This document shows positions 7,201 to 10,175 of a stretch of DNA of 64,000 nucleotides, one piece after another. Each line of letters starts with the position of its first letter. Positions within the stretch are counted from its first letter, which is position 1. The notes beneath the pieces are model-generated. The model ran no database searches. It saw only the letters and a program-made list of their open reading frames with translations, and had not been told where the DNA came from. Origin of the DNA: a virus. The stretch lies in IMG/VR virus record IMGVR_UViG_3300015371_000001, positions 32,001 through 96,000 of that record; one strand, written 5' to 3'. The position numbers and the translations under genes were made by a program.

Positions 7201-10175
7201 TGTCGACCACGATCTCGGGCAGCACGGCAGATCGGAAGCACATCAGCAACTCGCTCGCTGGGATCAAGACTGAGGACATCCTGAAGGGTAAAGAGGACCA
7301 GGCTGTTGAGGTCGTCTTGCATGTGCCCGCTGGAGTCAAGGGCCGGTACCTGGAGCCGTGGGCACCGAAGAAGTTCGGCTACGAGAAGGAGCTTCTGCTA
7401 GATCGAGGTCTCAAGTGGCAGGTGGAGCGTGCCGAGCGGATGAACGGCAACGGCGAGTTGTCGAAGGTGACGTTGCTGGGGTACCCCGCTGATCAACAGC
7501 CTCAGCGTTCACTTGATTCGCTTAACCCAAGCCGTCATGGCGTATTTGAGGACTACACGACTGGCCGAGCTTTTCGTGCATCTGCTCCCTTGGCGAGCAA
7601 CATGACCACTCTTGCAGAGACTAGGGGAAAGGACCCGGACGAGACGCTTACGGTCTATCGTGGCGTTCCCAAGTCGGCTCCTGACGGTCTCCAGCCAGGC
7701 GACTACGTTACGACGATGCGTCAGCTTGCGTCCGACTACGCGGGTGACGGTCGTGTGATAGCAGCGAAGGTTCGTTATGGCGACATCTTGGACGACCGCG
7801 AGGACCCCGGCAATGAGTCCGAGTTCATCTACCGTCCTCAGCCGAATCGGTATTGGGTCAAGCCGGTGTCGGCGGACAAGGTCATTAAGCGTTCTGACTT
7901 CAGCAACCCGGACACACCTCGTACCCGAGCCGTATCACCTGAGGAGTTCGCTCTGCTCTCCGATGAGGGGCGAGCCAAGCTGGAGTCGTTCCGGCAGGAC
8001 TCAGCACCACCGGAGGGTCTGGACAAGAACTTTGATGCACTGACCGATCAGGCGTTCAAGGACACCCGTGAGCCGTGGGGCGGTATGACCATCGATGCCC
8101 GGTCGGGTAAGCCGGTGGACCCTGGCAAGGAGGCGTACGCGCTCTCGGTGAAGAACGGGGTAGCCTCGGTCACGATCCCTGCGGACTCGGACGAGGCCAC
8201 CTTCAAGAAGGCGATGAAGGAGGCGCGGGAGCGCTTCGACAACGACCTGCGATACAAGCAGATCTCGCTGGGCATCTTCCATGACGACGACACAGGTCAG
8301 ATCGAGTTCGATCCAGTGCTTGTGGTAGACAACCTGCACGACGTAGACACCATTGGGTCGTACACCCACGCTGTTGGAGGAGCGTATGGCTTCCATGACG
8401 GCAACGGCTACTGGCCACCGTACGTAGAGGAGAAGCCAGGTGAGCAATTCCAAGAAGCCAGGGCAGCGGAAAAAGTCCAAGGACTTCAAGGGTCCGGGGC
8501 AGTGGCTCCGCCGAGCCAAGAAGGCTCAGGGCAACGAGCCGGGTCAGGAGGCAGAGACCTCGGAGCCGTCCTCCGAGGAGCCCGAGACAAGCGAGCCCAA
8601 AAACGAGTAGAGGCGTACCACCCGAAGGTCAAGGGGTTCGGAGACAACGCAGCCGTCGAAGATGCGATGCACAAGACGGCGGTGGTGCTTGGCGACACTG
8701 ACCTGATCGACCACCTGACGATCAAGGGTGCTCCTGCGAAGGAGTTGGTGAAGGAGGGTGGCGAAGGCGCGGTTGCCAACCATCATCAGTCGTCTCGTGC
8801 TGGCGAGAACGACGTGATCACGTTCTCGAACGAGTTGTTCCCAGCGAAGGATGCGCCGAACCTTGGGATGGGCTCCAAGGACAGCAGCATGGTCGATGAC
8901 GTTGTCTACTCCGCCAGTGTGGGCTTCAACGAGAAGGCCGAGAAGAACCTGACGCAGCCTCAGTTGACCGTGGCTCACGAGATGGGCCACGAGATCACGC
9001 TGGACGTTGAGACCGAGGCGCTACGAGATAATCCACGGCTGTTCCAGGACGAGGTCATGGTGCCGTTGTCCAAGGCGCTGGGGGTTGACCCACCCGATGT
9101 GCCGGAGGACGGCGCTGGGCTACGTGGAGCCATCGAGGAGTGGCGCGAGAAGAACGCTGCGGTGATTGCCAAGAAGGTGTCGACGTACGGCTCCTCGATG
9201 GTGCCGGAGATGTACGCCGAGTTGTGGGCCAAGTACGTCGATGACCCCGACGCGCCAGGTCCGGCCAAGGCATTCGGCGACGGGATTAAGCGGGTCCACG
9301 CTCAGGCCAAGCACGCCGACATGCAGACGGCTCAGAATCGGTTCGATATGCACGTTGGTGACTGGCCAGCACCGATGTCGAACGACCGGAGTAAGAAGGC
9401 GTTGGAGGAGCGGACGGCGATGGCCATGTTCTGGGCCAACTCCAGCGAGTACAACAACAACGTGACTGATCCGTCGTTCCCCAAGCCGCTGGACCGAGAG
9501 TGGACGCAGAAGGAGATCGATGACGCCCACGCCAACAATCCAGGCTTGGACGATGTGCTCAACATTGACAACGTGACCTTCCGGAATCGAATCCAACAAC
9601 CCCTCACCGTGTGGTGGGGCCAGCCAGCCGGAACTGTTGATCTCCGACCGGGGACCAACATCGTGGACGCAGGCTACGAGGCCGTCACCACAGATCCGTC
9701 GAAGCTGCCTGAGGGGTACGACAAGTTCAAGCTCTTGCTCGCACCGGGTACGCCGTACCTGCCAGACGATCCGAATGTGGGCAGTACTCCGATTCATGGA
9801 CTCGGTCGGGACACCAACTGGATCGTAGTTGGCAAGGAGAAGGACGGCACCACCTTGGTGGAGGTCAGCGCACCTCGTGAATGGGAGCACGTCGATGCGG
9901 GGACGGTGGACTTCGGACCTGATTCGGACCCGACCGACGGAGGTCGTTTGACTCCGGATGCCAAGACGGGTGCTGAGGCAGGCTACGAGAACACGTCAGG
10001 CGATGGCGGCGATACAACCGGAGGCGACCCGTTCGCCGACCAGCCTGACCAGCCGTTGGGCGGAGCAGGCTTCGGTCAGATGGACGATGCGGAGTACGAG
10101 CGGATCAAGGCCAAGTTCGCTCGCCGTAACAAGGCGGCACAGGAACGACTGCGGAAGGGCAAGAAGAATGGCTGA
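4212..10175 (+). CDS. Portal protein (N-terminal ~450 aa) fused to ADP-ribosyltransferase-like and HExxH metallopeptidase-like domains
   Basis: Mu gp29/DUF935-like portal N-terminus (FDGYSAFEQV, HNSQMSKSVLA, LIPKFIDWNFG); ART motifs YTGGEGYKGTNRGLRG, FLSTT, EKELLLDRG; TVYRGV..PGDYVT..ESEFIY; HEMGHE..EMYAE; position after terL. Confidence 0.85.
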   Translation: MTTDIVTLANDDDPQAVVPRPKEDSQEFGIALRLPFSTPYVPPRGVKKRSKDDLYEVFNEKAEDEPNILQLQAMRRTDGQARALYRLITLPIRSALRTAKFVPAKDGELEAEFAELMLTLPYSGGGMQTPMRTVIAQMLMAVFDGYSAFEQVLWRPKKGPLEGMWTLRKIAHRPAETVTFITDDHGEFEGIRQRTVIHGKEIDEFIDARSCIYFAVQEEERPFYGVSYFQAAFSHFDKKVKLYYISHLAAQHRAVGARIGTAPASASKAERDTFLKHMEDFGFAQAILLPKDFEIEHQYPTANASFLDLINHHNSQMSKSVLAAFFDDSQGGGADSALVDFGKQDDSMFVMMLQALMDDLAGLINDKLIPKFIDWNFGSEKYPEFKFGTFTNEQKEIIHSTFEKLAVAGQTLTVTHEFMRELEKYMAEELGLDNIDYEDIDARERADKEKADLQAQEMGQFYGGSGGFPPKPKAPDGPDGPQPSKPIGQGPSGSNSGGVRPPGSEPDTSVPFAATYTTGGNTVELTWDPTLHPRDPIGQFAPADGSNKEPVKESSTHIKKPLEPEHQASAEPKGGFAEPRPRDTASSDSSSSTSYDHTTEDKPPKMPPELEGRSLESLKNERRRLGREILQSSGNLKRVLMLAQQVVKINDGIEALEYQREQHRDRIHQLLQASSASKAALTQEADEVYSTEGKTDVVELATMWQERLHPRDNDGKFAEKPGTGVARAFKALDTSAEVYAKPGGRGTAHYKLFKDGSAQYVNARMESTDLKRDVALRRIAKQGFEKQAGDFKPARPRRPKADAPARGLSDKIKKPPDTPQQKAILRKSKTAQKVRREWPVGTRVTANTKEPTGREGTVTRHVPGTNAQGGHLNVKWDNGTEGRHSPVSLKKVTSEDRVLIGREWDRKSAREWTESKPLSPEQLKVVEDYTGGEGYKGTNRGLRGRAKMTPKIESEVAGLDSIMEPLPQDIVVRHFTHRREFPKNVQPGDQWSDPGFLSTTISGSTADRKHISNSLAGIKTEDILKGKEDQAVEVVLHVPAGVKGRYLEPWAPKKFGYEKELLLDRGLKWQVERAERMNGNGELSKVTLLGYPADQQPQRSLDSLNPSRHGVFEDYTTGRAFRASAPLASNMTTLAETRGKDPDETLTVYRGVPKSAPDGLQPGDYVTTMRQLASDYAGDGRVIAAKVRYGDILDDREDPGNESEFIYRPQPNRYWVKPVSADKVIKRSDFSNPDTPRTRAVSPEEFALLSDEGRAKLESFRQDSAPPEGLDKNFDALTDQAFKDTREPWGGMTIDARSGKPVDPGKEAYALSVKNGVASVTIPADSDEATFKKAMKEARERFDNDLRYKQISLGIFHDDDTGQIEFDPVLVVDNLHDVDTIGSYTHAVGGAYGFHDGNGYWPPYVEEKPGEQFQEARAAEKVQGLQGSGAVAPPSQEGSGQRAGSGGRDLGAVLRGARDKRAQKRVEAYHPKVKGFGDNAAVEDAMHKTAVVLGDTDLIDHLTIKGAPAKELVKEGGEGAVANHHQSSRAGENDVITFSNELFPAKDAPNLGMGSKDSSMVDDVVYSASVGFNEKAEKNLTQPQLTVAHEMGHEITLDVETEALRDNPRLFQDEVMVPLSKALGVDPPDVPEDGAGLRGAIEEWREKNAAVIAKKVSTYGSSMVPEMYAELWAKYVDDPDAPGPAKAFGDGIKRVHAQAKHADMQTAQNRFDMHVGDWPAPMSNDRSKKALEERTAMAMFWANSSEYNNNVTDPSFPKPLDREWTQKEIDDAHANNPGLDDVLNIDNVTFRNRIQQPLTVWWGQPAGTVDLRPGTNIVDAGYEAVTTDPSKLPEGYDKFKLLLAPGTPYLPDDPNVGSTPIHGLGRDTNWIVVGKEKDGTTLVEVSAPREWEHVDAGTVDFGPDSDPTDGGRLTPDAKTGAEAGYENTSGDGGDTTGGDPFADQPDQPLGGAGFGQMDDAEYERIKAKFARRNKAAQERLRKGKKNG
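8440..8610 (+). CDS. Nested 56-aa ORF in the +1 frame inside the portal fusion
   Basis: AGAGGAG SD, then GTG, MSNSKKPGQRKKSKDFKGPGQWLRRAKKAQGNEPGQEAETSEPSSEEPETSEPKNE*; GC3-rich codons, while the portal frame here has many A-ending codons. Confidence 0.55.
   Translation: MSNSKKPGQRKKSKDFKGPGQWLRRAKKAQGNEPGQEAETSEPSSEEPETSEPKNE

Follow-up and report, generated by a model that had tools for sequence, protein, structure and literature searches.

The locus analysed here raises the question whether a short open reading frame (ORF), lying out of frame inside a phage portal gene, is itself a gene and, if so, which of the two overlapping frames is the older one. The window, a stretch of 64,000 nucleotides (nt), is part of a 141-kb IMG/VR virus record with a GC content of 0.62 (IMGVR_UViG_3300015371_000001, positions 32,001 to 96,000). 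It contains a gene for a portal protein fused to several cargo domains (4212-10175), and wholly within this gene, on the same strand and in another frame, lies ORF 8440-8610, which begins at the end of a cargo domain here called domain X (Table 1). This ORF is probably a genuine embedded gene, most likely translated from its own GTG at 8440, and its frame appears to be the older of the two, overprinted by a linker of the portal polyprotein.

A preliminary description of the locus, made from the letters alone, had proposed a hidden small gene on account of an AGAGGAG Shine-Dalgarno (SD) sequence, a GTG start at 8440 and a 56-amino acid (aa) +1-frame product with a basic N-terminus and an acidic C-terminus, and all of these elements are correct in the sequence. 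The product contains twelve lysines and arginines, mostly in its N-terminal half, and ten aspartates and glutamates, all but one in its C-terminal half. Domain X has its last conserved residue at E1406 (nt 8427-8429) and the ORF starts 11 nt later, at the domain end as had been described, with the AGAGGAG built from the V-E-E codons that close the domain. The nearest upstream stop in the +1 frame is TAG 8425-8427, which shuts this frame four codons ahead of the GTG. An assembly indel was considered as the source of the out-of-frame arrangement and rejected, because contigs from two other rhizosphere runs spanning 8014-8712 are identical to the window, without differences or gaps.

Relatives of domain X were gathered by a protein search and, in addition, from IMG/VR and from the JGI metagenomes, and all three frames were translated downstream of the conserved domain end G-x-G-Y-W-P-P-H/Y. 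In most relatives the same short peptide, referred to below as the module, is found downstream of the domain, mostly within about 120 nt, and its frame relative to the domain varies. It carries the motif [H/x]-F-K-G-P-G-Q/E-W-R/L-x-Q/K-A, for the family as a whole [HF]-F-K-G-P-G-Q/E-W-R-S-Q-A, with F-K-G-P-G-Q/E-W-x-x-Q-A as the shared core; in most cases an acidic tail comes after it. Conservation in the family extends to about 11 residues; the alignment shows the G, G and W of the core motif to be invariant, and the tails range from acidic to basic. A profile built from the relatives without the window copy matches ORF 8440-8610 at E=4e-11, which is the sole significant match in the six-frame translation of the window. 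When the profile is made from 31 non-embedded relatives and compared with 10,030 six-frame segments, it recovers the window ORF at E=5e-10, together with the copies of the relative loci L006 (1e-7), L063 (5e-7), L019 (6e-11) and L009 (3e-4); L-numbers denote fetched relative loci. By these profile matches ORF 8440-8610 is assigned to an undescribed family of small proteins characterised by F-K-G-P-G-Q/E-W. A profile search of about 5.8 billion predicted proteins returned 52 free-standing members of 31-93 aa, all annotated as hypothetical. The window ORF itself is not among them and has been missed by gene callers, to which the embedded gene is invisible even though its free-standing relatives are present in the same collection.

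The expectation that homologs of the domain would be followed by a similar small gene was borne out. Domain X homologs comprise P0003-P0007 and about 100 fetched loci, representing 62 distinct junctions; the module is found downstream of the domain in 35 of 47 distinct junctions of the domain-first sample, and in 48 of the 60 junctions that are informative among the 62. Two relatives scored as lacking the module carry degenerate versions without G-P-G, which are Q-A-Q-W-H-A-Q-A-K in L018 (~3060-3200), again embedded in the +1 frame, and N-F-V-Q-W-H-T-A-A-A-R-A-Q in L044 (~1645-1725, +2 frame), and because of these the true fraction is probably above 48/60. The linkage was also approached from the motif side, by scanning IMG/VR with a degenerate DNA pattern. 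The exact pattern including D-F/Y gave no match, and a looser one gave 16 stretches, every one with the domain upstream. In the sampled contexts of the free-standing proteins, domain X forms the C-terminus of the preceding gene in three out of three, with the start of the small gene placed at, or spanning, the stop of that gene. The domain-end motif and the module motif are 61 nt apart in the window and 25-118 nt apart in most relatives, with distances up to about 1.3 kb where other genes intervene. The pair moves together among portal fusions, proteins of 330-600 aa and polyproteins of about 3000 aa. To judge from these contexts, the small gene is an obligate neighbour of domain X, and the pair is either split or fused.

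The two partners are arranged in several ways. Most often the module is a separate gene after the stop of the domain (28/60), either short (10) or long (18), the long forms continuing with a helical extension or, in L097, with the next cargo protein; free-standing module genes of other phages, located right after the domain's stop, encode 31-135 aa. In 15 relatives in total the module is fused in frame to domain X, and the polyprotein then either continues (9/60, for example L083) or stops (6/60). It is overlapped out of frame in one (L009), and embedded out of frame under an open upstream frame in four, namely the window, L006 and L063 in +1 and L019 in +2. While the module clearly heads the next cargo protein in L097, a degenerate version does so in L002 (profile E 0.31), which was not counted among the 28 separate cases. 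In L083 (IMGVR_UViG_3300035704_000393) the frame is open for at least ~1000 aa before and for 1997 aa after the in-frame module, giving a polyprotein of more than 3000 aa.

Start signals follow the architecture. An SD core of at least 5 nt together with an ATG or GTG within 20 codons upstream of the motif is present in all five embedded or overlapped copies and in 15 of 17 separate copies, versus 3 of 11 in-frame copies; within these polyprotein genes a 20-codon window has such signals at a background rate of 1-4%. In the window copy (W), L006, L063, L019 and L009 the ATG or GTG lies 3-15 codons ahead of the motif, with an SD spacing of 6-7 nt. The conserved end of domain X, V-[A/E]-E-[E/G], doubles as the SD sequence of the small gene (window 8424-8435; L098 ~3480-3503; L100 ~3485-3504), and in free-standing forms the ATG of the small gene abuts or overlaps the stop of the domain gene (TAAATG, ATGA). 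An internal promoter scan found none, and a single minus-strand terminator-like match was at chance level.

Codon usage over the small gene changes in the way the preliminary description had noted. The G+C content at third codon positions (GC3) of the portal frame is 0.49 over ORF 8440-8610, against 0.75 upstream and 0.79 downstream, and the ORF in its own frame has a GC3 of 0.82; over this stretch the portal frame does read through the small gene as a low-complexity linker. Among 16 same-strand alternative-frame ORFs of at least 40 aa in the portal gene, only 8440-8610 has a GC3 of its own far above that of the portal frame. Its length alone is unremarkable, twelve same-strand alternative-frame ORFs of at least 50 aa being present in the portal gene. 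The possibility of a chance ORF is accordingly rejected on homology and not on length, ORFs of this size being common in the gene, and the case for a gene is made by homology, start signals and the exchange of codon-position signal between the frames. The exchange is seen in four copies (W, L006, L063 and L009), where the GC3 of the polyprotein frame drops to 0.40-0.51 over the small ORF and that of the module frame is 0.74-0.86.

In a 13-codon core these four copies differ by 15 synonymous and 42 nonsynonymous changes when read in the module frame, and by 3 and 49 when read in the polyprotein frame, counts which come from four sequences in non-independent pairs and are to be weighed accordingly. 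The core motif is conserved at the protein level: its glycines are invariant, and their codons vary among embedded copies (GGT, GGA, GGC, GGG). Together, the GC3 exchange and the synonymous excess are taken to indicate continuing constraint on the +1 frame. W, L006, L009 and L063 form one supported clade (97/89) of the maximum-likelihood domain tree, with terminal branches of 0.37-0.67; by these branch lengths, the arrangement has survived about 50% protein divergence with frame, motif and start intact.

Several observations weigh against this reading, in addition to the non-independence of the pairs just mentioned. L019 shows no GC3 exchange and groups with the in-frame forms, in a different clade of the domain tree from the other four copies; its embedded module could be of independent origin or the result of a recent frameshift. 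Of 20 free-standing module genes, 4 likewise have the alternative frame that is equivalent to the portal frame open, so an open portal frame over the small gene is, taken alone, unremarkable. Pfam and PHROGs yielded nothing above threshold for the small protein or its long relatives, with one weak lead to a scaffold family (phrog_4708, E 1e-3, for L081) in the PHROG search. Finally, an AlphaFold2 (AF2) model of a natural in-frame fusion, L060, made with 10 in-frame relatives, shows the module as two short helices with a predicted local distance difference test score (pLDDT) of 52-72. This model predicts no confident contact between module and domain and is uninformative either way.

How the small gene came to lie inside the polyprotein is probably explained as follows. 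In the lineage of this phage the upstream gene would have lost its stop, and the polyprotein would then read over the small gene in another frame, this stretch serving only as a flexible linker to further cargo. Since the alternative frame is open by chance in 4 of 20 module genes, such a stop loss could fuse the genes without harming the small one. A graded series exists within the clade of the window, in which the upstream gene ends three codons past the domain in L002, runs 33 codons into the small gene in L009, and reads fully through it in W, L006 and L063. The small gene would thus be the ancestral frame and the polyprotein linker the overprint, a view in keeping with the low complexity of 8430-8609 in the portal frame and with the return of normal coding statistics at 8610, together with the H-P-K-x-K-G-F motif. 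The preliminary description had spoken of a captured effector/immunity pair whose partner gene was retained while the portal frame reads through it; the direction implied by "captured" is probably wrong, the small gene family being older and the polyprotein frame appearing to overprint it.

What the small protein does is approached through its linkage. Because the pair is split or fused, always adjacent and never apart, the small protein is inferred to act jointly with domain X, to which it would most likely bind in the role of a regulator, cap or docking partner. A more specific proposal, also made in the preliminary description, is that of an effector/immunity pair, in which the small protein would be an antidote with which the producing cell neutralises a toxic domain X, on the model of polymorphic toxin-immunity systems. 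Strict adjacency directly downstream of domain X, small size and joint movement between very different contexts are what such a pair would show, and the part of the proposal that called for a conserved partner gene of the domain has stood. The label of effector and immunity is weakened by several observations. Fusion to the domain or to the next cargo is atypical for immunity proteins, which are expected as separate polypeptides, and here 15 of 60 relatives have module and domain joined in one frame, and the next cargo protein begins with the module in L097 and with a degenerate version of it in L002. Domain X has no recognisable toxin or enzyme fold or family by Pfam, Foldseek or VIA, no confident docking is seen in the fused L060 model, and conservation is limited to about 11 residues with tails ranging from acidic to basic. 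We therefore consider an immunity function unlikely.

Another specific possibility, which we regard as similarly doubtful, is that domain X and the F-K-G-P-G-Q-W module are a receptor and its tag, a modular pair through which the capsid would be loaded with cargo. Domain X would have its anchor on the portal or on a packaged head protein and be bound by the short module, which, whether free, N-terminal on the next cargo or fused, would recruit or regulate separately encoded effectors for co-injection. The embedded 56-aa form would then act as a free competitor or cap tuning the occupancy of the receptor.

The +1 ORF might instead be an unexpressed remnant, yet to decay, of a module that was once in frame and was displaced by two compensating frameshifts. 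In-frame forms do exist (15 relatives), portal-frame domains flank the module on both sides, and L019 sits among in-frame relatives without the GC3 exchange. A remnant would nevertheless be hard to reconcile with four lineages of one clade, at about 50% domain identity, that all retain the open frame, the motif, and the SD and start. As in-frame relatives mostly lack these start signals (3/11 have them), the signals are not simply inherited, and the GC3 exchange and the synonymous excess in the +1 frame speak in the same direction; we hold this origin to be very improbable.

A programmed +1 frameshift between 8428 and 8484, ending at 8610 and yielding a truncated portal-cargo protein with the module at its end, would be in keeping with six relatives that end the polyprotein just past an in-frame module, with the A-rich run GAAAAAG at 8469-8475 and with an upstream SD-like element of the kind that can stimulate +1 shifting in prfB, yet it is the least credible of these alternatives, given that no shift-prone sequence is common to the five copies at either end of the embedded ORFs, that the +1 frame is shut shortly before the GTG, that the uniform SD spacing fits initiation and not prfB-type shifting, and that RNA structure around the small-gene start is not significant (z = -0.16).

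In gene architecture, the nearest counterpart of an embedded gene with its own start is the Rz/Rz1 pair of two-component spanins of lambda and relatives, for which embedded, overlapped and separated architectures are described (Kongari et al. 2018, PMC6139136). In both systems a small +1-frame gene with its own start lies wholly inside a larger phage gene, and in both the pair is embedded, overlapped or separated in different phages (here 4, 1 and 28). The two Rz genes are functional partners; the partnership proposed here is derived from linkage. There is no relation in sequence or function between the two systems, and no lipobox, membrane segments or lysis context are found here. A fourth architecture, in-frame fusion, is moreover common in the present family, and the embedding gene is a portal-cargo polyprotein which overlaps the small gene only as a linker. 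With polymorphic toxin/immunity pairs the locus shares a variable domain of C-terminal type followed by a small partner gene that travels along, and differs in the frequent in-frame fusion of the partner to the domain or to the next cargo, in the lack of a toxin fold and in a conservation confined to a short motif. Lambda C/Nu3 and other nested genes of head operons are alike in that a second product is initiated, putatively so here, inside a head-morphogenesis gene next to the portal. Nu3 and C have a common frame and a common sequence, whereas here the frames differ and the two products have no residues in common.

The host gene itself is a typical polyvalent protein, with many unrelated cargo domains on a virion-packaged head protein. 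As in the polyvalent proteins of phages and conjugative elements (Iyer et al. 2017, PMC5512222), it combines a portal head, an ADP-ribosyltransferase and several uncharacterised cargo domains split by linkers; a term search of that paper found neither "overlapping" nor "frameshift". If the explanation given above holds, polyproteins of injected cargo can be extended over an adjacent small gene, read in another frame, and leave that gene intact, and it is the older gene that ends up embedded, the reverse of the usual course of overprinting. The locus further defines a unit of two parts, a well-folded domain and a peptide of about 40 aa, which are closely linked in many uncultured phages of soil and water and offer a testable handle on the regulation or loading of portal-fusion cargo domains.

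Table 1. Features of the portal fusion gene and of the small genes in and next to it (window coordinates).
Feature	Positions	Strand	Description
Host gene, portal polyvalent fusion	4212..10175	+	1987 aa; ORF list and translation, Pfam, PHROG
Cargo domain X	7884..8429	+	aa 1225-1406; ends G-Y-W-P-P-Y-V-E; constant upstream partner of the small gene
SD-like AGAGGAG	8426..8432	+	7-nt spacer 8433-8439, then GTG 8440-8442
Portal-frame read-through over the small gene	8430..8609	+	aa 1407-1466; linker rich in G, A, Q, E and R; GC3 ~0.5
Embedded gene (probable), +1 frame of the portal fusion	8440..8610	+	56 aa; basic N-terminus, core motif, acidic tail; TAG 8608-8610
Core motif F-K-G-P-G-Q-W-L-R-R-A	8485..8517	+	+1 frame; 15 codons after GTG 8440
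Downstream cargo, portal frame	8610..10172	+	starts with H-P-K-x-K-G-F punctuation motif; contains H-E-M-G-H-E; GC3 0.79
ORF 10168, separate gene	10168..10374	+	68 aa; ATG 10168 overlaps portal stop 10173-10175; GC3 0.72

Within the portal fusion, Portal_Mu is found at aa 72-420 (Pfam PF06074, 9e-32; PHROG 113 portal) and an ADP-ribosyltransferase, ADPrib_exo_Tox, at aa 902-1078 (Pfam PF03496, 1e-10), besides at least three further domains. The downstream cargo (aa 1467-1987) belongs to no Pfam family and has no relatives among the fetched loci. ORF 10168-10374, for which the preliminary description had suggested the same role with respect to the last domain, is an ordinary small gene, which overlaps its neighbours only at the ends, is not embedded, and has no match to the module profile and none in PHROG.

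Domain X is modelled by AF2 with a pLDDT of 92. It belongs to no Pfam family, and none of the LPD families of polyvalent proteins is above threshold (best LPD5, E 0.13). No match to its fold was found in the PDB (Foldseek E above 0.1, best VIA Z 3.2), and the ESM Atlas gave no usable lead. Among GenBank phage records there is no blastn or tblastn match to 7600-9500 or to the long module protein, the sole matches being to the 590-aa protein of L015, in a different N-terminal region; neither domain X nor the module is carried by a cultured phage in GenBank. Domain X is also found outside portal fusions. In L098, L100 and L102, contigs of about 50-120 kb, it is part of a protein of 334-470 aa with Pfam DUF7218 near the N-terminus, and this protein and the small gene are located between the terminase and ribonucleotide reductase genes.

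The gene order of the window is lambda-like, with portal, protease/scaffold and decoration genes. Phages with the long form of the module have in succession the domain protein, the module protein, a phrog_328 protease and a phrog_49 decoration protein, the same order as that of 11342-12463 and 12498-12935 in the window. Between the portal fusion and these genes, 10331-11326 encodes a 331-aa protein with weak PHROG matches to portal, head-morphogenesis and head-protease families and with a Cys/His-rich C-terminal stretch (P-C-D-M-C ... H-P-N-C-Q-C), which resembles head proteins of the SPP1 gp7/MuF type. The phage would in that case have a MuF-like protein apart from the portal fusion.

In L002 the degenerate module (E-F-V-E-W-H-R-Q-A) starts a 303-aa protein with an H-E-W-A-H motif (6878-7789), and the combination of module and zincin-like cargo may be ancestral as a unit; the downstream cargo of the window, with its H-E-M-G-H-E, showed no sequence similarity to this protein. 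In L002 an annotated endonuclease VII gene (6377-6859) separates the domain gene from the gene that follows it, the stretches translated behind the domain in L027 (632-1111) and L081 (351-980) resemble this endonuclease, and the window has a confirmed endonuclease VII after the decoration gene (12941-13372). The pattern suggests a site at which a mobile endonuclease inserts repeatedly.

Contigs of several rhizosphere metagenome runs, dated 2012 and 2016, contain sequence identical to 7900-9100 of the window, and small shares occur in freshwater and aquatic runs; the phage or its close kin recurs in soil samples.

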